Of a stretch of DNA of 64,000 nt, positions 3,977-47,252 are shown one piece after another. Position numbers and translations under genes: made by a program. The stretch is from Chitinophagales bacterium. Lineage in GTDB: Bacteria; Bacteroidota; Bacteroidia; Chitinophagales; JADIYW01. Position 1 is the first letter of the stretch. Each line of letters opens with the position of its first letter. The stretch is from positions 1,202,151 through 1,266,150 of the forward strand of contig JACJXT010000011.1 in assembly GCA_020636535.1 (NCBI GenBank), written 5' to 3'. Below the pieces are notes generated by a model. It searched no databases, was not told where the DNA came from, and saw only the letters and a list, made by a program, of their open reading frames with translations.

Positions 3977-5215
3977 ATGGAAACAATTATTGCAATTCCT
4001 GTTTTTGTATTATTACTTTTGTTGGAGTTTTTTTATATGCGAAAAAAACAGAAACATTATTATCGATTGAATGATGCCATTACTAATTTGAATATAGGTA
4101 TTGGTCATGTTATTTCTAAAGTTGTAGTAGGTCTTTTGCTTATTGGCGTATATGATTTTGTGTATACACATCGAATAATTACCTTACCTAATAATATATT
4201 AACTATTTTATTTTGTTTAGTAGCTTACGATTTCTTTTTTTATTGGGCACACAGAATTGGTCATGAAATGAACTTTTTTTGGGGAGCTCATGGTGTACAT
4301 CATCAAAGCGAAGATTATAATTTAAGCGTAGCATTAAGACAGTCTTGGTTACATGCATCTATTGCTTTTTTTATATTTTTGCCAATTCCATTTGTAGGTG
4401 TTTCGGCAGAAGTTTTTTTTCCAGTATTAGCAATTAATTCTTTTTATCAATTTTGGATACATACCGATGTTATTAATAGAATGCCAAAGTGGTTTGAAGC
4501 AATTTTTAATTCGCCTACGCATCACAGAGTGCATCATGGTAGAAATCCCAAATACATCGACAAAAATCATGCTGGTATGTTTATTATTTGGGATAAACTA
4601 TTTGGAACATTTCAAGAAGAAGAAGAAAAACCAACTTATGGTATTACTAAACCTCTCAATTCTTGGAATCCGTTTTATGCAAATATAGAATACTATTTAA
4701 GTATGTTTAAAGCATCAAAACAAATGAAATGGAAAGATAAACTGAAATTTATTTTTGCAAAACCAGGTTGGCAACCAGATTATTTAGGTGGAGAAATTCC
4801 TGTGCCATCAATAGAAAATGAAACGATAAAGTATGATGTAAAACCAAGAACAAACGGAATAAACATATATGTTTTAGTGCAGTTTATTTTTATTATTATT
4901 GGATTGATGGCATATCTTTATTACTACGATACACTACCATTATTTCATAAAATATTTTGGTTTGCAATGGTTATGCTCTCTATTTTTTCAAGTAGTGCTA
5001 TAATTGAACAAAAAAAATGGGCAAGGTATGTAGAGATTATTCGACTGATTATTATTGTTGTAGGATTAAATATCTTATATTTTTCTAATTATTATAATTG
5101 GGCAATAGTTACAGCTGTAATCTCTATTCCAATAACCATTTATTTCATAGTATGGTATCTATTAAATTTAAAAGACAAATACATTTTTGGATTTATGTCA
5201 AAACAAACAGCATAA
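3977..5215 (+). CDS. fatty acid hydroxylase / sterol desaturase family membrane protein
   Basis: Three histidine boxes (HRIGHE, HGVHHQ, HHRVHH) in a polytopic N-terminal domain, plus an extra hydrophobic C-terminal domain. Confidence 0.75.
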   Translation: METIIAIPVFVLLLLLEFFYMRKKQKHYYRLNDAITNLNIGIGHVISKVVVGLLLIGVYDFVYTHRIITLPNNILTILFCLVAYDFFFYWAHRIGHEMNFFWGAHGVHHQSEDYNLSVALRQSWLHASIAFFIFLPIPFVGVSAEVFFPVLAINSFYQFWIHTDVINRMPKWFEAIFNSPTHHRVHHGRNPKYIDKNHAGMFIIWDKLFGTFQEEEEKPTYGITKPLNSWNPFYANIEYYLSMFKASKQMKWKDKLKFIFAKPGWQPDYLGGEIPVPSIENETIKYDVKPRTNGINIYVLVQFIFIIIGLMAYLYYYDTLPLFHKIFWFAMVMLSIFSSSAIIEQKKWARYVEIIRLIIIVVGLNILYFSNYYNWAIVTAVISIPITIYFIVWYLLNLKDKYIFGFMSKQTA

Positions 5216-5258
5216 TGTGATTTTTTTGAAAAGATTCAGAATTTATTTTAAAATCTCT

Positions 5259-5277
5259 TTCTGAACTTGTTTCAGAA
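5259..5277. terminator. hairpin between convergent genes (possible bidirectional terminator)
   Basis: ttctgaa-cttgt-ttcagaa stem-loop flanked by T/A runs. It lies between the 3' ends of 3977-5215 (+) and 5338-5736 (-). Confidence 0.4.
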
Positions 5278-5337
5278 TCTCTTTTTAAATTTATCATTGG
5301 AAAGATAGAATTGCTAAGTCTCTACAATAAATTCATA

Positions 5338-30113: not shown

Positions 30114-33100
30114 ATGAAAAACATTTTTACACTACTTTTTTTAATGGTAATGGCATATGTATTACCAAAAAATGCAAATGCACAAGCATTCATTACTACT
30201 TGGAAAACAGATAATGCAGGTTCGTCTTCTAGTACATCTATAACCATTCCAACTCTTGCTGGCGAAACATACAACTACGATGTAGACTGGAACAACGATG
30301 GTATTTTCGATGAATTTGGCTTAACAGGCGATGTTACACACGACTTTGGAGTTGCTGGTACTTACACCATTCGCATACAAGGTACTTTTCCACGCATCTA
30401 TTTCAATAACACAGGAGATAGACAAAAAATACTAAGTATAGACCAATGGGGTAATATTGCTTGGACAAGCATGCATAGTGCTTTCCATGGTTGTACCAAC
30501 CTAAATCTAACAGCCATTGATGCACCAGATTTGTCCAATGTAACTTCATTAGGTTATATGTTTAATAGTTGTACTAACTTTAATGCAAACATCAATCATT
30601 GGGATGTTAGTAACATAACAGATATGATAGCTATGTTTGATAGTGCTTATGTGTTCAATCAGCCATTAAATGATTGGAATGTAAGTAATGTTACCAATAT
30701 GGCCGAAATGTTTTATTGGGCAGTATCGTTCAATCAGCCATTAAATAATTGGGATGTAAGTAATGTTACACAAATGGCAAAAATGTTTTATAATGCAAAT
30801 AAATTTGATCAATCATTAAATAATTGGGATGTTAGTAGTGTAACGAATATGTCATATATGTTCTGTAATGCAAATAAATTTAATCAACCATTAAATAATT
30901 GGAATGTCAGTAATATAAAATATATGGCATATATGTTCGCATCTGCTTCAACTTTTAATCAACCGCTAAATAATTGGGATGTTTCTAATGTAGGCGTTAT
31001 GGAAGGGATGTTTTATTATGCTATATCATTTAATCAACCATTAAATAATTGGGATGTGTCTAATGTAATACGAATGAATAGTATGTTTTCACATGCAACA
31101 TCCTTTAATCAACCTTTATTTTTATGGAATGTAAGTAAAGTACAATATATAGACTATATGTTTTACTATGCATCTTCTTTTAACCAAAATTTAGGTAATT
31201 GGAATATTAAGAATACTATTTACAGTACTAATAAATTAAAATATATGCTATCTTACTCTGGTTTAGATTGTATCAATTATTCGGCAACTTTAATAGGTTG
31301 GAGTAACAATACTTCAACTCCAAATGGGCTACAACTTTCTGCTCAAAATCTACAATATGGTACAAATGCGCTTACTGCTAGGAATAAATTACTGGCAAAA
31401 GGTTGGACAATTATTGGAGACAGCCCAAGTGGCACAGGTTGTTCTTTACCATTCATTACTACATGGAAAACAGATAATACAGGTGTATCATCTAGTACTT
31501 CTATTACAATTCCAACCACAGGTACTGGCTACTACTATGATGTAGATTGGAACAATGATGGCATTTTTGACAATTTTGGTGTTACTGGTAGTATTACACA
31601 CAATTATGGAGTAGCAGGTAGTTATCAAGTAGCTATTAGAGGAGATTTTCCTAGAATTTACTTTAACAATACAGGTGATAAGCAAAAAATACTAAGTATA
31701 GACCAATGGGGAGATATTCAATGGTCTTCTATGGAAAATGCTTTTTATGGTTGTAGAAATTTAAACTTTTCTTTAATACCAGCACCATATCTTGGTAATG
31801 TAACCTCATTAAAAAGTATGTTTTTTGCTTGTTTTAATCTTAATGCTAATCTTAATCATTGGAATACTAGTACTATTACAGATATGTCTAACTTATTTAA
31901 TTTAGCCAATTCATTTAACCAACCATTAAACAATTGGAATGTCAGTAATGTAACCAATATGTCAAAAATGTTCGCGAGTATACCTTTGTTTAATCAACCA
32001 CTAAATGATTGGGATGTAAGTAGCGTAACAGATATGTCTAGTATGTTTAATACAGTACAAGCATTCAACCAACCATTAAATAATTGGGATGTTAGTAATG
32101 TAACAAATATGAGATATATGTTTTTTAATGAAACTTCCTTTAACCAACCATTAGATAATTGGACAGTAAGTAGTGTAACAGATATGTATGGTATGTTTAA
32201 TTCTGCATCATCATTCAACCAAAGCTTGGCTACTTGGTCATTAAATCCAATAGTAAATATGTCTATAATGCTTAATTATTCTGGCTTAGATGTTAGTAAC
32301 TATGATGCTACGCTAATCGGTTGGGAAGCTCAAGGTATTTCAAACAGAACATTAGGTGCTACAAACTTAAATTATTGTAATGCAGCATTACAAAGAAGTA
32401 ATTTAATTACTACTTATGGATGGACAATCACTGGAGATACTAAAATTTGTGGAGCATCTTTCATTACTACTTGGAAAACAGACAATGCAGGTTCGTCTTC
32501 TAGTACTTCAATAACTATTCCAACTTTTGTTGGCGAATCGTACAACTATGATGTAGACTGGAATAACGATGGTATTTTTGACGATTTTGGAGTTACTGGA
32601 GATATTACACACGACTATGGAGTGGCAGGTACTTATCAAGTAGCTATTAGAGGAGGCTTTCCAAGAATTTATTTTAATGCTACTGGCGATAGACTAAAAA
32701 TATTAAGTGTAGACCAATGGGGAGATATTACTTGGTCTTCTATGGAAAGTGCTTTCAATAGTTGTAGCAATTTAAACATTACAGCTATAGATGCACCAGA
32801 CTTAAGTGGAGCCACTTCGCTTAGAAGAATGTTTGCTGGTTGTTCTAGTCTAAATGCCAATATCAATCATTGGAATACTACTACTATTACAGATATGTCT
32901 TATCTATTTAATGGAGCCAATACATTTAATCAGCCATTAAATAATTGGAATGTTAGTAATGTAACTAATATGTATGCTATATTTTCTGGTGCAACCGCTT
33001 TTAATGGCAACATCACTTCTTGGGATGTAAGTAAAGTACAATTATTTACTTTAGCGTTTAATGCAGCTACAAACTTTAATCAAGATATTGCTGCTTGGAA

Positions 33101-36100
33101 TACCGTAGCAGCAAATTCTTTTCAAAATATGTTTAGAAATGCAATAAATTTTAATCAAAATTTAGCCAATTGGACATTAAAACCAACAGTAAATATGTTA
33201 CTAATGCTCGATAATGCTGGCTTAGATGTCAATAACTACGATGCTACACTTATTGGTTGGGAAGCTCAAGGCATTACTGGTAGAAATTTGGGTGCTTTAA
33301 ACTTAAAATATTGTGCTGCAGCACTACAAAGAAATAATTTAATTACTACTTATGGTTGGACAATTACTGGAGATAGTAGAGATTGTGGTGATCCTTTTAT
33401 TACTACTTGGAAAACAGACAATACAGGTATTTCTTCTAGTACTTCTATTACAATTCCAACTACAGGTACTGGCTACTACTACGATGTAGATTGGAACAAC
33501 GATGGTATTTTCGATGAATTTGGTATTACTGGCGATGTTACGCACGATTTTGGTGTTGCTGGTACTTATACTATTCGCATACAAGGTGCTTTTCCTAGAA
33601 TCTATTTCAACAATAGTGCTAGTTCAGATAAAGCAAAACTACTAGAAGTCAATCAATGGGGAGATGTTGTTTGGACAAGTATGAACGGTGCTTTCGCTGG
33701 CTGTACCAACTTAAGGGTTTTTGCTACAGATGCACCAGACTTATCTAGCGTTACAGATATGACTTCAATGTTTGCAAGATGTAGCTATATGAATGATAAT
33801 ATCAATCATTGGGATGTAAGCAATGTTACCAATATGACTTATTTATTCCTTTTTGCTTCACGATTTAACCAGCCATTAAATGATTGGAATGTAAGTAATG
33901 TAAATAATATGACAGGTGTTTTTCAATATGCATCAAAATTTAATCAAGACATAAGCGATTGGGAGGTAGATAATGTTATACGCTTTAGTTCTATGTTTAG
34001 GTATGCACCAGTGTTTAATCAACCACTAAATACATGGAATGTAAGTAATGGAATCTACTTTACAAATATGTTTAATGGAGCATATGCTTTTAATCAACCA
34101 TTAAGTACATGGAATATAAGCAATACAACAAGTTTAAAAGAAATGTTTTACTATGCTACTAGCTTTAATCAAAATCTAAGTAATTGGAATATAGCAGGAG
34201 TTACAGATATGACAAATATGTTATCTTATTCAGCTTTAGATGTTGCTAATTACGATGTTACACTTATTGGTTGGGAAGCACAAACAGTTCAAAATAATGT
34301 TCCTTTAGGTGCTATTAATTTAAGATATTGTGCAGCAGAGATACAAAGAAGCAATTTAATCACTACAAATACATGGACAATTACTGGAGATGCTAGAGCT
34401 TGTGGTAATCCATTTGTCACTACATGGAAAACAGACAATGCAGGTACTTCATCTAGTACTTCTATTACAATTCCAACTACAGGAACAGGTTACTACTATG
34501 ATGTAGATTGGAACAATGACGGTATTTTTGATGAATTTGGCTTAACTGGTGATGTAACTCATAATTTTGGTACAGCAGGTACTTACCAAATTGCTATCAG
34601 AGGTGATTTTCCTAGAATATATTTTAATAATGCTGGCGATAAAGATAAAATACTAAGTATAGACCAATGGGGAGACATTGAATGGACTTCAATGGAAAAT
34701 GCTTTCCATGGTTGTACTAATTTAATATCTTCAGCTATAGATGCACCAGATTTAAGCATCTGTACCATTTTAGATGGAATGTTTGCTCGTTGTACTAATT
34801 TTAATGCTAGCATTAATCATTGGAATGTAATTACTATTACTGATATGTCGGCTATGTTTTATCTAGCATATGCTTTTAATCAACCATTAGATAATTGGAA
34901 TGTAAGTAATGTAACAGATATGCATAGAATGTTTAGTGCCGCAATAGCATTTAATCAACCATTAAATAATTGGGATGTAAGTAATGTAATAGATATGTCA
35001 TATATGTTTTACAATACAGATGTTTTTAATCAATCACTAAACAATTGGAATACAAGTAGCGTAATCAATATGTCATATATGTTTTCTTATTCTAATGTTT
35101 TTGATCAGCCACTAAATAATTGGAATACTAGTAGTGTAATAGATATGTCAGAGATGTTTCATAATGCAGATGCTTTTAATCAACTATTAAATAATTGGAA
35201 TGTTAGTAGTGTTACTAATATGTCAGCTATGTTTTTTTCGGCAAACGCCTTTAATCAACCATTAAATACTTGGAATGTAAGTAGCGTAACTAATATGTCA
35301 GAGATGTTTATATACGCATCATCATTTAATCAACCATTAAATACTTGGAATGTAAGTAGCGTAACTAATATGTCATATATGTTTAATCATGCAACAGTAT
35401 TCAATCAATCATTAGCTAACTGGAATATTACAGCTGTAACAGATATGACAGATATGTTGTCTTTCTCTGGTTTAGATGTGGATAATTACGATAATACACT
35501 AATTGCTTGGGAAGCTCAAACAGTACAAAACAATGTGCCTCTCGGTGCTACATATCTTAAATATTGTGCAGCAGATGTGCAAAGAAGCAACTTAATAAGC
35601 ACTTATGGCTGGACAATTACTGGAGATAATAAAATTTGCGGTGAGCCATTCATCACTACATGGAAAACAGATAATGCAGGTGTTTCTTCTAGTACTTCTA
35701 TTACCATACCTACAACAGGCACTGGTTACAATTACGATGTAGATTGGAACAACGATGGTATTTTTGATGAATTTAATATTACTGGCAATGTTACACACGA
35801 CTTTGGCGTTGCTGGTACTTATACCATTCGCATACAAGGTGCTTTTCCTAGAATATATTTTCATGCTACTGGCGATAAAGACAAAATATTAAGCGTAAAT
35901 AAATGGGGCGATATTCAATGGTCTTCTATGGAATATGCTTTTGGGGATTGTAGCAATTTAAATGTTATCGCAACAGATGCTCCAGATTTATCTAATGTAA
36001 CTTCTCTTCATTCTATGTTTTCAAATTGCACTAATTTCGATGCTAATATTAATCATTGGGATGTTAGTAATGTAACCAATATGTCATATATGTTTTCAAG

Positions 36101-38147
36101 AGCAGATGCTTTTAATCAACCATTAAATAACTGGAATGTAAGTAGTGTAATTGATTTGTCAGGTATGTTTTATAATGCAATTGCATTTAATCAACCATTA
36201 AATAATTGGGATGTTAGTAGTGTAACAGATATGTCATATATATTTAATAATGCAACTCTATTTAATCAACCATTAAATAACTGGAATGTAAGTAATGTAA
36301 CTAATATGTCATTTATGTTTAATAACGCGAGTGAATTCAATCAATCTTTAAATACATGGAATGTAAGTAATGTAACAGAGATGATTTGGATGTTAAATTA
36401 TAGTGGCTTAGATATTCTCAATTACGATGCTACACTTATTGGCTGGGAAGCACAAACTGTACAAAATAATGTTTCATTAGGAGCTATTAATTTAAGATAT
36501 TGTGCAGCAGATATACAAAGAAATAATTTAATTACTACAAATGGTTGGATAATTAATGGCGATGGCAAAGCTTGTGGGGAGCCATTTATTACCACTTGGA
36601 AAACAGATAATGCAGGTTCATCTTCTAATACATCTATTACAATTCCAGCTTCAAGTACTGGTTTCGGATACGATGTAGACTGGAACAATGATGGTGTTTT
36701 TGATGAATTGGGTATTGGAAGCAGTATTACTCATGATTTTGGTGTGGCTGGCACATATACTATTCGTATACGAGGTAACCTCTCAATGCTTTATTTTAAT
36801 AATACGGATGATAAAGATAAAATTTTAAGTGTAGACCAATGGGGAGATATTGAGTGGACAAGTATGTATTTTGCATTTAATGGCTGTAGTAACTTAAATG
36901 TAACAGCAATAGATGCTCCAGATTTAAGTGGCGTAACTTCTTTAAGAGGTATGTTTTATAAATGTACAAGTTTAAATGCCAACATTAATCATTGGGATGT
37001 AAGTACTATTACTGATATGGCATCAATATTTTATGAAGCAACTGCATTTAACCAACCATTAAATAATTGGAATGTAAGCAATGTAACCGATATGTTAGCT
37101 ATGTTTTATAATACAAGTTCCTTTAACCAAGATTTATCTTCGTGGAATGTAAGTAAGGTAACTAGTATGGCATATATGTTTAATGGAGCTAGTAGTCAGC
37201 AATTAAGAACTGCTAATAATAACACTTTACAGAATAATTTCTCAGCTTTAAATATAAGTTCGTGGGATGTAAGTAATGTTACAAACATGTTTGCTATGTT
37301 TAGAAATGCTACGGCTTTTAATGGAAATATTAGTACTTGGAATACGAGTAGCGTAACAGATATGGCTTTAATGTTTGAAAATGCAAGTTCATTTAACCAA
37401 AATTTAGGAACTTGGGATATCTCCAATGTTGCAGATATGACCAATATGTTAGACAACACCGCATTATCTTTAGCTAACTACGATAATATATTAATAGGAT
37501 GGGAAGCACAAACAGTACAAAATAATGTTTCGCTTGGTGCTTTAAACTTAAATTATTGTGCTGGTGCTACTGCAAGACAAAATTTAATTGACAATAGCTC
37601 GTGGACAATTACCGGCGATAATTTAATGTGTGTGTTGCCAGTAGAGTTGCTTTCATTTACAGCAACAGAAAATAATAATGAAGTAATACTAAATTGGGAA
37701 ACTGCTACAGAAATCAACAATAAAGGTTTTGAAATTGAGTACAGTACAGATGCTATTAATTGGATTACTATAGGTTTTGTAGAAGGACAAGGCAACGCTT
37801 CATTTAATACTTCTTATGATTTTACACATCAAACACCAGAAAATGGCAACAACTACTATCGCTTAAAACAAATAGATTTAGATGAAACATTTACTTATTC
37901 TGATATAGCAATAGTTAATATAGAAAACAATCATCATGTGGAGGAATTTAGTATTTATCCAAATCCAGTAATCAATATTTTAAATATTAAAGGAAAAGAT
38001 AATTTTAATGCTACTATTATAAATGAAATTGGACAAATAATTAAGCAGTTTGCTAACATAAAACAAATAGATGTAAGCAATTTTGCCAAAGGCATGTATA
38101 TTATTCAGTTTGATGATGCTAGTACAATTAAGTTTATTAAAAATTAA
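30114..38147 (+). CDS. giant (2677 aa) T9SS-secreted BspA-family / DUF285-type repeat surface protein
   Basis: Signal peptide. Seven modules, each made of three parts: an N-terminal (A/P)F(I/V)TTWKTDN...YDVDWNNDGIFDEF...FPRIYF domain; a variable number of ~23-aa FNQPLNNWDVSNVTNMxxMF repeats (the DUF285/BspA LRR-like pattern); and a YDATLIGWEAQ...WTITGD cap. A VLPVELLSF...YYRLKQIDLD domain and a type A T9SS CTD follow (FSIYPNPVINILNI...GMYIIQFDDASTIKFIKN). Confidence 0.85.
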   Translation: MKNIFTLLFLMVMAYVLPKNANAQAFITTWKTDNAGSSSSTSITIPTLAGETYNYDVDWNNDGIFDEFGLTGDVTHDFGVAGTYTIRIQGTFPRIYFNNTGDRQKILSIDQWGNIAWTSMHSAFHGCTNLNLTAIDAPDLSNVTSLGYMFNSCTNFNANINHWDVSNITDMIAMFDSAYVFNQPLNDWNVSNVTNMAEMFYWAVSFNQPLNNWDVSNVTQMAKMFYNANKFDQSLNNWDVSSVTNMSYMFCNANKFNQPLNNWNVSNIKYMAYMFASASTFNQPLNNWDVSNVGVMEGMFYYAISFNQPLNNWDVSNVIRMNSMFSHATSFNQPLFLWNVSKVQYIDYMFYYASSFNQNLGNWNIKNTIYSTNKLKYMLSYSGLDCINYSATLIGWSNNTSTPNGLQLSAQNLQYGTNALTARNKLLAKGWTIIGDSPSGTGCSLPFITTWKTDNTGVSSSTSITIPTTGTGYYYDVDWNNDGIFDNFGVTGSITHNYGVAGSYQVAIRGDFPRIYFNNTGDKQKILSIDQWGDIQWSSMENAFYGCRNLNFSLIPAPYLGNVTSLKSMFFACFNLNANLNHWNTSTITDMSNLFNLANSFNQPLNNWNVSNVTNMSKMFASIPLFNQPLNDWDVSSVTDMSSMFNTVQAFNQPLNNWDVSNVTNMRYMFFNETSFNQPLDNWTVSSVTDMYGMFNSASSFNQSLATWSLNPIVNMSIMLNYSGLDVSNYDATLIGWEAQGISNRTLGATNLNYCNAALQRSNLITTYGWTITGDTKICGASFITTWKTDNAGSSSSTSITIPTFVGESYNYDVDWNNDGIFDDFGVTGDITHDYGVAGTYQVAIRGGFPRIYFNATGDRLKILSVDQWGDITWSSMESAFNSCSNLNITAIDAPDLSGATSLRRMFAGCSSLNANINHWNTTTITDMSYLFNGANTFNQPLNNWNVSNVTNMYAIFSGATAFNGNITSWDVSKVQLFTLAFNAATNFNQDIAAWNTVAANSFQNMFRNAINFNQNLANWTLKPTVNMLLMLDNAGLDVNNYDATLIGWEAQGITGRNLGALNLKYCAAALQRNNLITTYGWTITGDSRDCGDPFITTWKTDNTGISSSTSITIPTTGTGYYYDVDWNNDGIFDEFGITGDVTHDFGVAGTYTIRIQGAFPRIYFNNSASSDKAKLLEVNQWGDVVWTSMNGAFAGCTNLRVFATDAPDLSSVTDMTSMFARCSYMNDNINHWDVSNVTNMTYLFLFASRFNQPLNDWNVSNVNNMTGVFQYASKFNQDISDWEVDNVIRFSSMFRYAPVFNQPLNTWNVSNGIYFTNMFNGAYAFNQPLSTWNISNTTSLKEMFYYATSFNQNLSNWNIAGVTDMTNMLSYSALDVANYDVTLIGWEAQTVQNNVPLGAINLRYCAAEIQRSNLITTNTWTITGDARACGNPFVTTWKTDNAGTSSSTSITIPTTGTGYYYDVDWNNDGIFDEFGLTGDVTHNFGTAGTYQIAIRGDFPRIYFNNAGDKDKILSIDQWGDIEWTSMENAFHGCTNLISSAIDAPDLSICTILDGMFARCTNFNASINHWNVITITDMSAMFYLAYAFNQPLDNWNVSNVTDMHRMFSAAIAFNQPLNNWDVSNVIDMSYMFYNTDVFNQSLNNWNTSSVINMSYMFSYSNVFDQPLNNWNTSSVIDMSEMFHNADAFNQLLNNWNVSSVTNMSAMFFSANAFNQPLNTWNVSSVTNMSEMFIYASSFNQPLNTWNVSSVTNMSYMFNHATVFNQSLANWNITAVTDMTDMLSFSGLDVDNYDNTLIAWEAQTVQNNVPLGATYLKYCAADVQRSNLISTYGWTITGDNKICGEPFITTWKTDNAGVSSSTSITIPTTGTGYNYDVDWNNDGIFDEFNITGNVTHDFGVAGTYTIRIQGAFPRIYFHATGDKDKILSVNKWGDIQWSSMEYAFGDCSNLNVIATDAPDLSNVTSLHSMFSNCTNFDANINHWDVSNVTNMSYMFSRADAFNQPLNNWNVSSVIDLSGMFYNAIAFNQPLNNWDVSSVTDMSYIFNNATLFNQPLNNWNVSNVTNMSFMFNNASEFNQSLNTWNVSNVTEMIWMLNYSGLDILNYDATLIGWEAQTVQNNVSLGAINLRYCAADIQRNNLITTNGWIINGDGKACGEPFITTWKTDNAGSSSNTSITIPASSTGFGYDVDWNNDGVFDELGIGSSITHDFGVAGTYTIRIRGNLSMLYFNNTDDKDKILSVDQWGDIEWTSMYFAFNGCSNLNVTAIDAPDLSGVTSLRGMFYKCTSLNANINHWDVSTITDMASIFYEATAFNQPLNNWNVSNVTDMLAMFYNTSSFNQDLSSWNVSKVTSMAYMFNGASSQQLRTANNNTLQNNFSALNISSWDVSNVTNMFAMFRNATAFNGNISTWNTSSVTDMALMFENASSFNQNLGTWDISNVADMTNMLDNTALSLANYDNILIGWEAQTVQNNVSLGALNLNYCAGATARQNLIDNSSWTITGDNLMCVLPVELLSFTATENNNEVILNWETATEINNKGFEIEYSTDAINWITIGFVEGQGNASFNTSYDFTHQTPENGNNYYRLKQIDLDETFTYSDIAIVNIENNHHVEEFSIYPNPVINILNIKGKDNFNATIINEIGQIIKQFANIKQIDVSNFAKGMYIIQFDDASTIKFIKN
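30189..37632 (+). repeat. seven tandem coding modules within the giant gene
   Basis: Module starts (the TTWKTDN-encoding ttcattactacttggaaaaca and variants) at 30189, 31449, 32459, 33393, 34410, 35646 and 36582. Module lengths are about 934-1260 nt. Confidence 0.85.
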
Positions 38148-40496: not shown

Positions 40497-41090
40497 ATGA
40501 AAAAAATACTATATATAACACTCATAATCTTAACTTCTTCTTGCACAGTACTCAATACGCTAAGTCAGAAAGAAGAAAAAATATTTTTGAAAGAAGCAGA
40601 ACCAATTAAAATTTCTATAGACGAAGGCGAATTGCCAAACGAATATATGATAAGTTTTGATGATGGCTTAGCAGAAAACTTAAACGAATTTGTCTATACT
40701 GAAGAATTATACAAAGATGATGCTATTGCTATTGCTGCACTTTGGATGTTAGCAGTACGAGAGTATAATGTAGACAATAGTTGGTACTTATCATATTTTG
40801 CTACAATTTTAGATAATGATTTTTTTAACTATAACAAGGGTAGGAAAGGAGAATTAAAAGAAACAACTAAAACAAAACTCAATTCGTATTTAAAAAACAC
40901 TAATTTTTCTAACTATAAACTATCATGTTGGCAAAAACAATACAGTTTAAATTTTTGTTTATGGATGGCAATAGTTGATGGAGTAAACACTGGCGAGTTT
41001 ATTGTAAGAATACGAGACAAAAACTTCAAATACAAAACACTAGTACTCAACAATACAAAAAATGGATATAAAGTAATTGATTTTTTATAA
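40497..41090 (+). CDS. hypothetical lipoprotein
   Basis: MKKILYITLIILTSSC lipobox from the ATG at 40497. The track ORF begins at an upstream TTG. Confidence 0.5.
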   Translation: MKKILYITLIILTSSCTVLNTLSQKEEKIFLKEAEPIKISIDEGELPNEYMISFDDGLAENLNEFVYTEELYKDDAIAIAALWMLAVREYNVDNSWYLSYFATILDNDFFNYNKGRKGELKETTKTKLNSYLKNTNFSNYKLSCWQKQYSLNFCLWMAIVDGVNTGEFIVRIRDKNFKYKTLVLNNTKNGYKVIDFL

Positions 41091-41323
41091 TATATAAATA
41101 ACTACTAATCAATTGTCATTAACTTCTAACTAACTAAATCTTCTAAAAATGATTTGTCCATTTTTACAGTAGCTTTTAGTTGATATAAGATAGCGTACAT
41201 ACCAAAAAATGTTCGATGCAAATAAATAGCATCTCTATTACCACGAATGGCTTTTGGTTTTCTAAACTCTTTGTTCGTACTCAATTGTTCGCCTTCTCGA
41301 TTCAGTTGATTGGTATATTCTTC
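40973..41323. repeat. left copy of the ~350-bp target-site duplication flanking the IS1634-family element
   Basis: Base-for-base identical, as far as I can read, to 43155-43505. It abuts the IS left inverted repeat. Confidence 0.85.
41126..41323 (-). pseudogene. duplicated 3' piece of the ABC1/UbiB-kinase gene fragment (part of the target duplication)
   Basis: Encodes ...EEYTNQLNREGEQLSTNKEFRKPKAIRGNRDAIYLHRTFFGMYAILYQLKATVKMDKSFLEDLVS. Identical to 43308-43505. Confidence 0.8.
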
Positions 41324-43154
41324 TCGAGTTTGACACCTTTTCATAAAATATGACTGAGAACGCCTTATTTTATTGAGTTTTGTTTTTATTTTTTCAAATT
41401 TGTAGTGAGCCGATTTTTTTTTGGTTGCTTTTATAATTAGTTTATCCGCTCTATTTTTGCAGTATGTCATTTTTGCGGATAGAGAAAAAATCATCAGGCA
41501 CGTATTTGCGTATCTTAGAAAGCTATCGAAATGATGAGGGCAAATCAAAGCACAAAATATTACACACACTTGGCAAAGTAGAAGATTATAAACCAGCCCA
41601 ATTGCGAGCCATCGGTATCCAATTATTTGAGTTAGGTGGTGGCGAAGTAAAGGCATTGCTAACTGGCGATTTGTTAGAATTAGGCAGATACAATTATGGC
41701 TATCAATACCTCTACCAAAAAGTATTACAGCATTATGGTTTGCAAGATGTGTTTCGCAGAATAGCCTCAAAAAACAAACTACAATTTAATTTTTCGGATG
41801 CTGTTTTGTTGATGCTTTTAGAGCGATTACAAGATCCGTGTAGTAAACATCAAAATTATCTACATCAGTCGGAATATCTTAATTTGCCTACTGTTTCGCT
41901 ACATCACTTGTATCGAACTTTAGATAAATTAGCCGACAATCAATCGCTCATTCAACAACAAATTTTCCAAACAGGCAGAGATTTATTTAATCAAAAATTG
42001 GATGTTGTATTTTATGATGTAACCACTTTGTATTTTGAAAGTGAAGTAGAACAACAAGGCAAACTTAGGCAAAAAGGATTTAGTAAAGATGGCAAAATAG
42101 GAAACACACAAATCTTGTTTTGTATGCTCATAGATACTGATAAAAATCCGATTGGTTATCAAATTTTTGAAGGCAATACCTACGAAGGACATACTTTTGA
42201 AAAAGCATTAATCGATTTAAAAAAACAATATCAAATAGAAAAAATAATTATGGTAGCAGATAGAGGTATGTTATCGAAACATAACATCGAAATTACCAAA
42301 AACAATGGCTACGAATTTATACTTGGCGAACGCATCAAAAGTTTACCTAAAACATTACAAACCGAGCTTACCGATTTAGCTTCTTTTACCAAACAATGGA
42401 TATACCATGATACAACTGGCGAAGCCATTGTAATTACATATAAAACCGTAGAACACGATGGTAAAACAATCATCGTAACACACAGCCAAAAACGAGCAAA
42501 AAAAGACAAACAAGATAGAGAAGACAAAGAAGCTACAGCTAAAATACTATTAAAAAATACAGCTCTAATTACCAAAAAAGCAAGTAGGTTTTATATACAA
42601 CAAAACCCAAAAGGCAGCTATGAACTGAATGAACAAAAACTAATAAACGATGCAAAGTACGATGGCATTTTGGCTATTAGCACCAACAACAAAACCCTTA
42701 CAGCAACACAAGTATTAGAACAATACAAACAACTTTATAAAATAGAACACACCTTTAGAACCTTTAAAGCACACTTAGAAATAAGACCCATGTTTCATTG
42801 GACAGACAAACGAATTAAAGGACATATTTGTTTATGCTATATCGCTTATACACTATTAAACTACACACTACAAAGAACCAATAAAAGCGGACTAAAACTC
42901 ACAGAGAATACGCTAAGAACTACGCTAAATAAAATGCAAGTAAGCTTGTTACAACACAATAAAGAGCAAATCTATGTACGTTCAAGACCAACAGAAAACG
43001 AAATTGCACTTCAAAGAGCAATAGGTTTAATGCCATTACAACCCATCATTCCAAAAGACAAACTAACACTATAAAATCCAATTTGTAGTGAGCCAATCCA
43101 ATAACACTATTGTTGATAATCAATTAATTAACTCAATATCGTGTCAAACTTGAG
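41324..43154 (+). mobile_element. IS1634-family (IS4-related DDE) insertion sequence, about 1.83 kb
   Basis: Terminal inverted repeats (tc)tcgagtttgacac at the left end and gtgtcaaacttgag(a) at the right end. Subterminal direct copies of aatttgtagtgagcc at 41397-41411 and 43080-43094. Single transposase ORF. Ends are uncertain by +/-2 nt. Confidence 0.8.
41464..43074 (+). CDS. IS1634-family DDE transposase
   Basis: 536 aa. The N-terminus MSFLRIEKKSSGTYLRILESYRNDEGKSKHKILHTLGK is characteristic of IS1634-type transposases. DDE-like segments: FYDVTTLYFES, MVADRGMLS, YKQLYKIEHTFRTFK. Confidence 0.8.
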   Translation: MSFLRIEKKSSGTYLRILESYRNDEGKSKHKILHTLGKVEDYKPAQLRAIGIQLFELGGGEVKALLTGDLLELGRYNYGYQYLYQKVLQHYGLQDVFRRIASKNKLQFNFSDAVLLMLLERLQDPCSKHQNYLHQSEYLNLPTVSLHHLYRTLDKLADNQSLIQQQIFQTGRDLFNQKLDVVFYDVTTLYFESEVEQQGKLRQKGFSKDGKIGNTQILFCMLIDTDKNPIGYQIFEGNTYEGHTFEKALIDLKKQYQIEKIIMVADRGMLSKHNIEITKNNGYEFILGERIKSLPKTLQTELTDLASFTKQWIYHDTTGEAIVITYKTVEHDGKTIIVTHSQKRAKKDKQDREDKEATAKILLKNTALITKKASRFYIQQNPKGSYELNEQKLINDAKYDGILAISTNNKTLTATQVLEQYKQLYKIEHTFRTFKAHLEIRPMFHWTDKRIKGHICLCYIAYTLLNYTLQRTNKSGLKLTENTLRTTLNKMQVSLLQHNKEQIYVRSRPTENEIALQRAIGLMPLQPIIPKDKLTL

Positions 43155-43505
43155 AGTTGATGGAGTAAACACTGGCGAGTTTATTGTAAGAATACGAGAC
43201 AAAAACTTCAAATACAAAACACTAGTACTCAACAATACAAAAAATGGATATAAAGTAATTGATTTTTTATAATATATAAATAACTACTAATCAATTGTCA
43301 TTAACTTCTAACTAACTAAATCTTCTAAAAATGATTTGTCCATTTTTACAGTAGCTTTTAGTTGATATAAGATAGCGTACATACCAAAAAATGTTCGATG
43401 CAAATAAATAGCATCTCTATTACCACGAATGGCTTTTGGTTTTCTAAACTCTTTGTTCGTACTCAATTGTTCGCCTTCTCGATTCAGTTGATTGGTATAT
43501 TCTTC
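43155..43505. repeat. right copy of the ~350-bp target-site duplication
   Basis: Identical to 40973-41323. It includes a second copy of the last 118 nt of lipoprotein gene 40497-41090. Confidence 0.85.
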
Positions 43506-43589
43506 ATCACCAAAATAAAAAGTGTCATGTTTTAGTGGTTCAGTAATAATATTAATTAATTTTTTAGCTGTACTATAAAATAAATACAT
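43308..43589 (-). pseudogene. 3'-terminal fragment of an ABC1/UbiB-family kinase gene (diverged duplicate of the end of 45939-47252)
   Basis: 43312-43594 aligns without gaps to 45943-46225 (283 nt, about 92% identity). The 93 encoded residues differ at only 4 positions from the C-terminus of the full-length gene. No N-terminal kinase part is present. Confidence 0.85.
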
Positions 43590-43615
43590 ATCTTTGAGTT
43601 CTAAGAAAATAATAG

Positions 43616-45019
43616 ATGTTATTTAATAGTTTTTCATTTGTTGGATTAGTATTAATCACAATGCTGATTTATTATATTCCTAAACTATCTAAATATCAAG
43701 TGAATATTCTTATTATATCAAGTTTGATTTTCTATTCATGGAATAATATTGCTCTTGTTACCTTATTGTTGTTTTCTGCAGGTATTAATATATTAAGTAG
43801 TTATTATATATTTTCAGAAAAAACTAAAAATAAAAAATTAGTTGCTTGGATTGGTGTTAGTTCAAATCTTCTTATTTTAGCTTTTTATAAGTATGCTGGA
43901 TTAATATCTTTTACCTTTTTTAAGGATACCGATCTTAGTGATTTTCTTATTACAATTCCTTTGCCCATTGGCATTTCATTTTTTACATTTCAAGGAATTA
44001 GTTTAGTAGTAGATGTCTATAAAGGAATTAACTCTAATGAAGATAAGATTATTTCAGAATCATTATATCAGCATGCAAAGAATACACTTTTTTTTATTTC
44101 ATTCTTTCCACAGTTAGTTGCTGGCCCGATAGTAAAAGCACATGAATTTTATCCTCAAATAAAAGAAAAGAAATTTAGTGCAATAAATTGGGAGAAGAGT
44201 TTTAAGGAAATAGTCTTGGGATATTTTCTTAAAGTCGTAGTAGCTGATAATTTAAAAGACTTTACTTTTTGGATTGAGTATCCTTATTTTCAAAATCAAG
44301 ATAGCTATAGTTTAATAATGATGTTATTTGGATATTCTTGTCAAATTTATGCTGATTTTGCTGGATATTCGTTAATAGCTATAGGAATAGCAAGACTATT
44401 TGGTTATAACTTAAGTGACAACTTTAATTTTCCATATATTTCAACTTCTTTTAAAGAATTTTGGAAAAGGTGGCATATTTCTCTTTCTTCCTTTTTGCAA
44501 GAATATTTATATATTCCTTTAGGTGGAAATAAAAAAGGAAAAGCAAGGACATATATAAATCTAATGATGACAATGATTCTCGGAGGTCTTTGGCATGGTG
44601 CATCTTGGAGTTATGCTGTATGGGGGGCTTTTCATGGATTGGTTCTAGCAATTGAAAGGTTTTTCATGAAAGAAGAACAGATAGAAAGAAGCTTTATAGT
44701 AACTGGTATTAGAATGCTATTTGTATTTTTTATGGTATCACTTGCATGGTTACTATTTAAACTACCTGAATTTAGTCATGTAGTTGACTATATAAAATGT
44801 ATATTTACAAATACATACAAAAGCCCTAATATTCAATTAATTTCTAATATATTTATTTTTTCATTGCCTGTTATTTTGCACCACTTGTTTTATTTGTATA
44901 CTTTTTACTTTAATAGTAGATTAATTAAAAAATATCAATTTGTTTTTTACGGAATGTTATTGTTCCTAATAATAACAAATGCTGGAGTCCCTGGAAGTTT
45001 TATTTATTTTCAATTTTAA
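43616..45019 (+). CDS. MBOAT-family membrane O-acyltransferase (AlgI/DltB-like)
   Basis: Polytopic. Conserved FWKRWHISLSSFLQEYLYIPLGGN and GLWHGASW motifs, including the catalytic His. Confidence 0.85.
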   Translation: MLFNSFSFVGLVLITMLIYYIPKLSKYQVNILIISSLIFYSWNNIALVTLLLFSAGINILSSYYIFSEKTKNKKLVAWIGVSSNLLILAFYKYAGLISFTFFKDTDLSDFLITIPLPIGISFFTFQGISLVVDVYKGINSNEDKIISESLYQHAKNTLFFISFFPQLVAGPIVKAHEFYPQIKEKKFSAINWEKSFKEIVLGYFLKVVVADNLKDFTFWIEYPYFQNQDSYSLIMMLFGYSCQIYADFAGYSLIAIGIARLFGYNLSDNFNFPYISTSFKEFWKRWHISLSSFLQEYLYIPLGGNKKGKARTYINLMMTMILGGLWHGASWSYAVWGAFHGLVLAIERFFMKEEQIERSFIVTGIRMLFVFFMVSLAWLLFKLPEFSHVVDYIKCIFTNTYKSPNIQLISNIFIFSLPVILHHLFYLYTFYFNSRLIKKYQFVFYGMLLFLIITNAGVPGSFIYFQF

Positions 45020-45023
45020 TTGT

Positions 45024-45920
45024 ATGATAAGAAAGACTATAATATTTACAATATTTCTTTTGCTCACTTGGAGTATCTTCCTTAGATATAATTCATTTAG
45101 TATATCTCAACATCAATGGCAAGCCAATATAGTGAATGCAGAAAAGTTTATTTACGATACAGACAGTTTTGATAATGTAATAGTTGGTTCTTCATTAGCT
45201 CAAAGACTTCAGATGGATAGCTTGCCTAACTTTTATAATCTTTCACTTAGCGGTCAATGTATATTTGATGGCTTAAATATTATAAAAAACAAAAACAAAC
45301 TACCAAAAAATATTTACATAGAAATAAATGTCATCAATCGTGAAGAGAATAAAAACTTTAATGAGATAATATCTTCTCCTATACTAAATGTGCTTAAAAA
45401 GAATTTTTTGATTTTTAGAACTGACAAACATCCACTTTCTTATGTAGAAAATAGATTTTTCTATCCAGTCACAAATTTTATTTTAGATATATTACATTAT
45501 GGTTTAAAAAATAGAATTAAATTATTTTTTGATTTAAAAAATAAAGAAAATATAGCTGATAACTCAGTTTTTTATAAAATGTTAAACCTACAAATAAATT
45601 ATTATTCAGAAAAAACTGACACAATGAAGATGGATAAATTATTTAATAAGCTTAAAAATAATATTGAGTTTTTGGAATCCAAGGGTTCAAAAGTTATCTT
45701 TTTTGAAATGCCTGTAAATCCTAAACTAGTACAATTAACCAGAGCATGTTATTTGCGTAATAGAATAGCAAATGATTTTCCTAATAATTTATTTATTAAA
45801 CTTCCAAGTAATATTAAACTTTATAAAACAAGCGATGGTGTACATTTAACACCTAATGAGGCAAAGATATATTCTGATTACTTAAAAGACAAGATAATTT
45901 CTTTATCTCTTGATAATTAA
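45024..45920 (+). CDS. MBOAT partner protein, possibly SGNH/DltD/AlgJ-like
   Basis: N-terminal membrane anchor from the ATG at 45024. VIVGSSLAQ (block I-like) and a C-terminal SDGVHLT (DxxH block V-like). The assignment is weak. Confidence 0.4.
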   Translation: MIRKTIIFTIFLLLTWSIFLRYNSFSISQHQWQANIVNAEKFIYDTDSFDNVIVGSSLAQRLQMDSLPNFYNLSLSGQCIFDGLNIIKNKNKLPKNIYIEINVINREENKNFNEIISSPILNVLKKNFLIFRTDKHPLSYVENRFFYPVTNFILDILHYGLKNRIKLFFDLKNKENIADNSVFYKMLNLQINYYSEKTDTMKMDKLFNKLKNNIEFLESKGSKVIFFEMPVNPKLVQLTRACYLRNRIANDFPNNLFIKLPSNIKLYKTSDGVHLTPNEAKIYSDYLKDKIISLSLDN

Positions 45921-45938
45921 AAAAAAGAATATTTATAT

Positions 45939-47252
45939 TTATCTAACTAAATCTTCTAAAAATGATTTGTCCATTTTTACAGTAGCTTTTAGTTGATATA
46001 AGATAGCGTACATACCAAAAAATGCTCGATGTAAATAAATAGCATCTCTATTACCACGAATAGCTTTTGGTTTTCTAAACTCTTTGTTAGTACTCAATTG
46101 TTCACCTTCTCGATTCAATTGATTGGTATATTCTTCATCACCAAAATAAAAAGTATCGTGCTTTAAAGGTTCAGTAATTATATCAATTAATTTCTTTGCT
46201 GTACTATAAAACAATTGCATATCTTCCTTGCTGTCATCAGCTCTAAGCATGTCTAATTTTATCAACTGTTCTTTAATTTTAGCTTCATCTTGTTGTAGAT
46301 TTTCATCGGCTAAAGAAAAATAAGTTTTATAAAAATCTTCTGAAATACTTTTCATACAACCAAAATCAAGCACAACCAATTTGTAATCATTAGTTACTAA
46401 AAAATTTCCTGGATGTGGATCTGCATGAAATCGCTTTGCATGATGTATTTGTTGAAATACAAAATCTACCAAAGTTTGTCCAATTTTATTTTTAATAGCT
46501 TGACTAACATCAGAATTAATAAAATCTTGCAATGGCATTCCTTCAATCCAATCCATTGTCAATACTCTATCAGAAGATAATTCTTTATAGTAATTCGGAA
46601 TCACTACATTGTCTAATGACTGACAAAGTGCAGCTACTTCCAAACCATTTTGCAACTCTAAATTGTAGTCGCACTCTTCTGTTAATCTTGCTTCAAACTC
46701 TTCTGCGTAATAATCTAAAAACGAAGTAGGCACACCAATTAGTCGAGCAGCCAAAGGTTTTACCATATTAATATCGTTGTGAATAGCATCAGCAACGCCA
46801 GGATATTGAATTTTTACAGCCAACTTTTTACCATCTTTATACGCTTCATGAACTTGACCAATAGAAGCAGCGTGTTTTGCAGTAGCATCAAATTCATCGT
46901 AAATAGCATTGGGTGCTTTGCCAAATTGCTTGATAAAAGTATTGGTAATTAATGGACCAGACAAAGCCATGGCATTGTTCTGTGCTTGTGCAAACTTTTC
47001 GGCATACTCTTTTGGTAACAAGCCAGTGTCCATGCTCATCATCTGAGCTACTTTTAAGGCACTTCCTTTTAGTTGATTGAGCAATTCAAAAATTTCGTCG
47101 GCATTTTTTTTGTCTAAATCTGCTTTATTGGTTTCTGAAACCATAGATTTTGCAGCATATTTTACATAGTTGCTACCAACTTTAACACCAGTTTTTAAAA
47201 ATCTAGATGCTCTTTGCACTTTGGAAGTAGGAATTTTGTTTTGCTCTTTCAT
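45939..47252 (-). CDS. ABC1/UbiB-family atypical kinase (AarF domain)
   Basis: 437 aa. AASIGQVH, KIQYPGV and FHADPHPGNF motifs of ABC1 kinases. Confidence 0.85.
   Translation of the reverse strand: MKEQNKIPTSKVQRASRFLKTGVKVGSNYVKYAAKSMVSETNKADLDKKNADEIFELLNQLKGSALKVAQMMSMDTGLLPKEYAEKFAQAQNNAMALSGPLITNTFIKQFGKAPNAIYDEFDATAKHAASIGQVHEAYKDGKKLAVKIQYPGVADAIHNDINMVKPLAARLIGVPTSFLDYYAEEFEARLTEECDYNLELQNGLEVAALCQSLDNVVIPNYYKELSSDRVLTMDWIEGMPLQDFINSDVSQAIKNKIGQTLVDFVFQQIHHAKRFHADPHPGNFLVTNDYKLVVLDFGCMKSISEDFYKTYFSLADENLQQDEAKIKEQLIKLDMLRADDSKEDMQLFYSTAKKLIDIITEPLKHDTFYFGDEEYTNQLNREGEQLSTNKEFRKPKAIRGNRDAIYLHRAFFGMYAILYQLKATVKMDKSFLEDLVR

Follow-up and report, generated by a model that had tools for sequence, protein, structure and literature searches.

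Introduction

Insertion sequences (ISs) of the IS1634 family are 1500-2000 bp long, have ends of the form C-----YT and normally generate target duplications of 5-6 bp in AT-rich sequence (PMC2266710). A YREK signature without the arginine, which is usual in this family, is the hallmark that sets it apart from the IS4 family (PMC2266710). According to that publication, IS1634 of Mycoplasma mycoides subsp. mycoides SC (Vilei et al. 1999, cited in PMC2266710 and PMC11004492) and IS1549 of Mycobacterium smegmatis are the only family members reported with long variable repeats, which measure 8-514 bp. No mechanistic model for these duplications was proposed in 2008 (PMC2266710), no later mechanistic account was found in the literature, and our literature search found no report of long repeats made by IS1634-family elements in Bacteroidota. 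Long variable target duplications are rare and mechanistically unexplained among DDE transposons. Here, we describe a clean and recent example, an IS1634-family element at positions 41323-43154 of a 64,000-nucleotide stretch of contig JACJXT010000011.1 from a Chitinophagales bacterium (the whole stretch is referred to as the window), and we show that long target duplication is the rule in a large and widespread Bacteroidota clade of related elements. This is new beyond the IS1634 and IS1549 precedent, as are repeats of up to 1.4 kb and a half-site motif at each end.

The window element resembles IS1634 in its NCBIfam family, its single open reading frame (ORF), its size (~1.8-1.9 kb for IS1634), its short inverted repeats and its long direct repeat; a variable repeat length, as known for IS1634, is found among the relatives of the window element. 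IS1634 differs in host phylum and in repeat length, since 8-514 bp is given for IS1634 and IS1549 together and 45-1365 bp is found in the clade of the window element; the ARRAA motif at each end described below is a feature seen in the Bacteroidota clade. Similarly, IS1549 belongs to the family and makes long variable repeats (PMC2266710) but has an actinobacterial host. On the other hand, ISGka5 of Geobacillus kaustophilus, with a transposase of the same family, produced a 6 bp duplication in experiment (PMC8024623) instead of 350 bp, and plasmid elements of Cereibacter and Rhodoferax have related termini (CCCAAGTTCGACA vs CTCAAGTTTGACA) but also duplicate 6 bp. The IS4 family (IS10, IS50, IS231) has a DDE_Tnp_1 transposase with a related catalytic core; it differs in having the full YREK signature and 8-13 bp duplications (PMC2266710), whereas the window element lacks the R (L424).

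A 350-bp target duplication at the locus

The element and its flanking repeat copies are arranged in the window as follows.

40973..41322, no strand: direct repeat copy 1 (X1), 350 bp, starting AGTTGA and ending ATTCTT, 100% identical to 43155-43504
41323..43154, plus strand: IS1634-family insertion sequence with one transposase gene, 1832 bp, termini matching those of 70 relatives
41323..41336, plus strand: left terminal inverted repeat CTCGAGTTTGACAC, which fits the family end consensus C-----YT (PMC2266710)
41464..43074, plus strand: intact transposase gene, 536 amino acids (NF033559, DDE_Tnp_1, conserved D185/D266/E428)
43141..43154, plus strand: right terminal inverted repeat GTGTCAAACTTGAG, defined from copy comparison
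43155..43504, no strand: direct repeat copy 2 (X2), 350 bp, running unbroken into the remainder of a kinase relic

A repeat search with base-by-base extension showed that 40973-41323 and 43155-43505 are identical at 351 of 351 positions, and the identity between the flanks ends sharply at both outer edges. The original prediction, made from the letters of this DNA, had read these flanks as identical and had placed a ~1.83-kb element with inverted repeats between them. Both descriptions hold, with some refinement: the element occupies 41323-43154 (1832 bp), and the duplication defined from the IS termini (40973-41322 = 43155-43504) is 350 bp long, a length that is indistinguishable from 349 or 351 bp because copy 2 is followed by a C and the IS also starts with C. 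Only two full copies of the repeated sequence (X) were found by BLAST in the whole window, a third match being partial and diverged, and the 1.83-kb segment is single-copy within the window. A 350-nt perfect repeat cannot have arisen by chance. X1 takes in the final 118 nt of a lipoprotein-like gene and, beyond a 35-nt spacer, the 197 nt at the 3' end of the kinase relic. The ORFs agree with the predicted make-up of the block (gene end, spacer and part of a kinase-gene fragment), to which it can be added that the kinase fragment is itself an older 286-bp duplicate of 93% identity.

The nature of the four junctions can be read from the genes that they cross.

40497..41090, plus strand: lipoprotein-like gene, an ORF inside which the right IS end was joined (40972/40973)
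43308..43589, minus strand: kinase 3'-end relic, a 93-amino-acid ORF and older duplicate of 45940-46225, inside which the left IS end was joined
45939..47252, minus strand: intact ABC1/UbiB-type kinase gene (PF03109, 194 bits), whose 3' end is a paralogous partial "empty site" for the left junction

The left flank together with X1 forms an uninterrupted lipoprotein-like ORF, which is continuous across the join point of the right IS end, and the intact kinase paralogue runs colinearly with X2 and the right flank through the join point of the left IS end. Consequently, native sequence runs through each outer junction, and the IS joints are the two inner ones, which is what target duplication predicts. 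At the inner joints, the right IS end meets the opening base of X and the left IS end meets its final base; in the original DNA, these joints correspond to 40972/40973 and 41322/41323, and the interval between them now lies on both sides of the element. We regard the target duplication at this locus as real and recent. It is very likely that an active IS1634-family element recently inserted between the lipoprotein-like gene and the kinase relic and that the insertion itself duplicated the 350 bp.

Transposase and termini of the element

The segment between the repeats has the ends tcTCGAGTTTGACAC and GTGTCAAACTTGAGa and contains a single long ORF, 41464-43074 on the plus strand. The inverted repeats tctcgagtttgacac and gtgtcaaacttgaga are complementary at 14 of 15 positions, and the element has 14-nt inverted ends. 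By comparing 72 related copies, the termini were set at C-N5-TTTGACA...TGTCAAA-N5-G. The element size of 1832 bp and the ends (CTCGAGTT on the left; CTCAAGTT, the reverse complement of the right) lie within the limits given for the IS1634 family.

The transposase scores 350.1 bits (cut-off 100) against the NCBIfam model NF033559, "IS1634 family transposase", and covers profile positions 2-481 of 483, while its scores against the IS4 and IS701 models are far under their cut-offs. Pfam identifies a DDE_Tnp_1 domain (PF01609, 47.9 bits). When the window transposase is aligned with 21 homologues, D185, D266 and E428 are invariant, with a D266-E428 spacing of 162 residues, and the YREK signature takes the form Y421-L424-E428-K435, in which L424 replaces the R. 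Profile score, size, termini and altered YREK motif all fit, and the transposase is, as judged from its sequence, an IS1634-family member, in agreement with the assignment first proposed for it. The 350-bp duplication departs from the 5-6 bp norm of the family; this is no bar to membership, since IS1634 and IS1549, both accepted members, break the norm too (PMC2266710).

An identical transposase is encoded on two public contigs. One of them, L002, is a Logan unitig that corresponds exactly to window positions 41322-43155; its ending at the IS edges is explained by collapse of the repeat to its shared part. The other, L001 (a European Nucleotide Archive contig), carries the element at 99.9% identity within wholly different flanks and therefore represents a second insertion site of the same IS. 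The left end of L001, CTCAAGTTTGACAC, is a perfect complement of the right end.

Long direct repeats at related copies

There are more than 3500 homologues of the transposase; most lie on contigs of 1.8-2.3 kb and thus represent collapsed multicopy repeats. A genome scan that started from the transposase sequence alone returned no relative, and an alignment of homologues was needed; the profile-based scan of one genome per species yielded 80 loci, almost all in Bacteroidota, with 42-68% protein identity. For four long-read genomes, the IS ends were set by copy-to-copy comparison, and then both flanks were compared for each copy. Direct repeats were present in 20 of the 30 copies; they start directly after the right end and run up to the left end with no base in between. 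These repeats are perfect except for one 480-bp Polaribacter repeat, which has a single mismatch. Their lengths are as follows.

Imperialibacter: 44, 100, 123, 149, 198, 334 and 1364 bp
Saprospiraceae CBDFMR01: 93, 156, 167, 168, 190, 375, 389 and 436 bp
Polaribacter: 260, 480 and 624 bp
Saprospiraceae CBDCVP01: 446 and 800 bp

The same architecture was found for single-copy elements on long contigs (n = 10, including the isolates Emticicia fluvialis and Aquimarina), with repeats of ~50-704 bp, some of which have decayed to 96-99% identity.

When the ends were defined uniformly, exactly abutting repeats were found for 30 of the 40 well-flanked copies, a set that has flanks of at least 2 kb on either side, includes the window and comes from more than 15 Bacteroidota genomes. 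These repeats measure 45-1365 bp, and their median is ~195 bp. The repeat length varies among copies within single genomes, from 45 to 1365 bp in Imperialibacter, from 93 to 436 bp in Saprospiraceae and from 262 to 626 bp in Polaribacter. The shortest repeat among 33 events is 45 bp, and a duplication of 3-30 bp was seen in none of 34 repeat-less copies, short contigs included. Masking of short duplications by boundary error was also considered and rejected: with ±2 nt allowed per end, no duplication of at least 5 nt appeared. The original prediction had suggested that the window may hold a Bacteroidota example of the long-repeat behavior and had proposed measuring the repeats at other copies; carried out on the relatives, this measurement supports the suggestion, with long repeats at 30 of 40 copies and short duplications at none.

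Five of the ten well-flanked copies without a repeat are accounted for by an exchange of flanks between IS copies. L023 and L042 of Imperialibacter (NZ_CP180355.1, ~3.33-3.36 Mb) are inverted, lie ~20 kb apart and have swapped the partners of their 129- and 217-bp repeats, and L028, L069 and L073 form a similar chain of exchanged partners (594 and 369 bp). Such swapped partners indicate, at the level of sequence comparison, inversion or rearrangement by recombination between IS copies. In this respect, the long repeats serve as barcodes from which IS-IS recombination events can be reconstructed.

In public short-read assemblies, this IS family is seen almost only as isolated contigs of 1.8-2.3 kb, with breaks at the flanking repeats. 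Because the contigs break there, long duplications are systematically invisible outside long-read genomes. Another observation concerns L051, L056 and L059 of Saprospiraceae CBDFMR01, in which a second repeated sequence of ~1.7-1.8 kb follows a truncated or interrupted right IS end; in L051, the 168-bp flanking repeat picks up again 1778 bp further on.

Extent of the long-repeat habit within the family

A tblastn search of plasmids returned distant relatives only, all with less than 35% identity and all annotated as IS1634 family. The closest of these (L085, 31% amino acid identity), on plasmid pCNAC48 of Aliarcobacter cryaerophilus, is flanked by a 682-bp repeat that lies directly against its 14-nt inverted ends; the copies are at 2208-2889 and 4625-5306 and duplicate part of a Crp/Fnr regulator gene. 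Owing to this repeat, the annotation of this member of the Campylobacterota lists a Crp/Fnr regulator twice, to the left and to the right of the IS. The plasmid elements of Cereibacter (L089) and Rhodoferax (L086), at ~25% identity, are flanked by 6-bp duplications, GGGCAG and GGGCTC. Since these distant members from proteobacterial plasmids make ordinary 6-bp duplications, the long-repeat habit appears to belong to a clade within the IS1634 family. Elements that duplicate 6 bp and have near-identical termini within the same family offer a natural contrast for finding the determinant of stagger length.

Target motif and a possible insertion mechanism

The flanks of 133 independent junctions (L001-L083 and the window) were read outward from the IS ends. 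The first five positions are A (79%), A/G (92%), A/G (82%), A (66%) and A (57%). Each IS end adjoins an A-rich pentamer, ARRAA in the outward direction, and the sites have the form ...TTYYT-IS-ARRAA...; the commonest outward hexamers are AAGAAG and AAAAAA. In the window, the outward hexamer is AAGAAT at the left junction and AGTTGA at the right one. The motif is a property of the target and not of the element, because those bases are present in both repeat copies.

The arrangement may be explained by a variation on the usual transposition chemistry. In the manner of other DDE transposases, the element would use its two 3'-OH ends to attack opposite target strands, each attack falling just 5' of an ARRAA pentamer. 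In this clade, the attack points would lie 45-1365 bp apart, as a 5' stagger, and not 5-6 bp apart, and the host would then fill two long single-stranded gaps, which would give rise to the long repeat. With the polarity reversed, the interval would be lost and the copy would have no repeat. There are at most five candidates for such a deletion, which implies that the polarity is constrained or that deletions are selected against. The orientation of the IS showed no bias relative to the local GC skew of the flanks (13 of 25 positive), although this is a weak test. Similarly, the repeat lengths (n = 33) showed no 10.5-bp periodicity, that is, no signature of DNA looping (Rayleigh test, p = 0.73), in a test that is weak because the sample is too small for a firm negative.

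As a tentative extension, which we hold with less than even confidence, the Bacteroidota clade, together with the Campylobacterota outlier, might be an obligate "long-stagger" inserter, in which each end captures its own ARRAA half-site, on opposite strands and from at least ~45 bp to 1.4 kb apart, always with the duplicating polarity. If this is true, target capture would differ from that of other DDE transposases, which use one compact target site, every insertion would be reversible by RecA recombination between the flanking repeats, and these natural insertions would form a dataset that constrains the IS1634/IS1549 mechanism. At the locus itself, the 350-bp repeats offer homologous recombination a scarless removal of the element, and rearrangement is also possible.

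Alternative explanations

Several points weigh against the view that the insertion itself duplicated the 350 bp. An empty site was not found by exact-protein look-ups of the lipoprotein-like protein, its upstream neighbor, the kinase and the MBOAT protein, which returned only L003, a 2.5-kb Logan unitig bounded by repeats; a metagenome scan with the lipoprotein-like protein likewise found nothing. This is explained by the absence from the collections of any bacterium closely related to the host, which is Chitinophagales-like. This exact IS is fully flanked in one copy only, that with the 350-bp repeat, and L001 shows no repeat in its 168 and 122 nt of flank, where a longer repeat would escape detection. 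Among the relatives, L035, L057, L063, L081 and L083 are well flanked and have neither a repeat nor an explanation. The strand-transfer and gap-repair steps are deduced from sequence. In addition, at a single locus, the same final sequence could be reached in two steps, in which independent insertions of the IS hit sister chromosomes at positions 350 bp apart, with ordinary short duplications, and unequal crossing-over between the IS copies then produces X-IS-X. Recombination between copies of these elements does happen; however, two nearby hits and a crossover would be needed each time, yet 30 of the 40 related copies have this architecture. Neither a simple short-duplication state nor an IS-X-IS intermediate occurs among the related copies, and their repeats are perfect and continuously variable in length. 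Such a two-step origin is regarded as very unlikely.

An even smaller chance is given to a tandem 350-bp duplication that arose first, with the IS landing later exactly at its junction. No specific observation speaks for it, although the region has an older history of duplication (the 286-bp kinase repeat). It needs an insertion at the exact junction that makes no duplication of its own, a coincidence needed again at each of 30 other loci from unrelated genomes, and the copies of X are 100% identical, as against 93% for the older local duplicate. The scenario that the original prediction had set against itself, short duplications at other copies combined with a prior tandem repeat, receives no support, and an IS-free relative of the locus was not found. 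It is just as hard to believe that the assembler copied the IS-adjacent sequence to both sides. The IS is indeed a difficult repeat, which collapses to contigs of ~1.8 kb in short-read assemblies, but the same architecture, with other repeat lengths, is present in independent long-read chromosomes and isolate assemblies, and the junctions are base-exact at the IS termini. Moreover, L003 (~43494-45972, containing the MBOAT cassette) ends inside the right-hand X and the kinase repeat, as a two-copy X predicts. Direct duplication of 350 bp by the insertion of the element is therefore the explanation that we prefer.

Neighboring genes and an older local duplication

The lipoprotein-like gene is still intact because its 3' end lies in X1; its product had no family match in NCBIfam and Pfam searches. 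A further ORF runs from the IS into X1.

41126..41770, minus strand: chimeric ORF that crosses the transposase start and the IS left end in antisense and then enters the truncated kinase relic in X1

The original prediction had held that the duplication creates this ORF. The ORF does exist, but it is probably no gene: as a gene candidate, it was rejected on its make-up alone, since it runs antisense to the 5' region of the transposase gene and is joined to a pseudogene relic. It is most likely a meaningless by-product. Elements of this kind duplicate gene ends and create fragment ORFs that confuse annotation.

The third match to X covers 45940-46136 at 96% identity and lengthens to 286 nt at 93% once the right-hand flank is added. 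It belongs to an older 286-bp direct repeat of 93% identity, 43309-43594 and 45940-46225, derived from the 3' end of the ABC1 kinase gene. These repeats bracket a 2.3-kb cassette of two genes, an MBOAT/DltB-like acyltransferase gene (43616-45019) and an ORF at 44979-45920. The repeat pair resembles the scar of an earlier insertion-duplication or of a single-crossover integration; no IS ends were noticed at its borders. The nearest homologues of the kinase are in Chitinophagales metagenome-assembled genomes, at ~70% identity (closest 71%), and are non-syntenic.

The host genome is low in GC (29%) and belongs to the Bacteroidota. In the neighborhood of the locus, at 30114-38147 on the plus strand, there is an ORF of 2677 amino acids composed of long internal repeats, about six in number; it contains PARCEL repeats (TIGR02167) and ends in a type A sorting domain of the type IX secretion system (T9SS). 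Judging from these domains, its product is probably a giant secreted surface protein.

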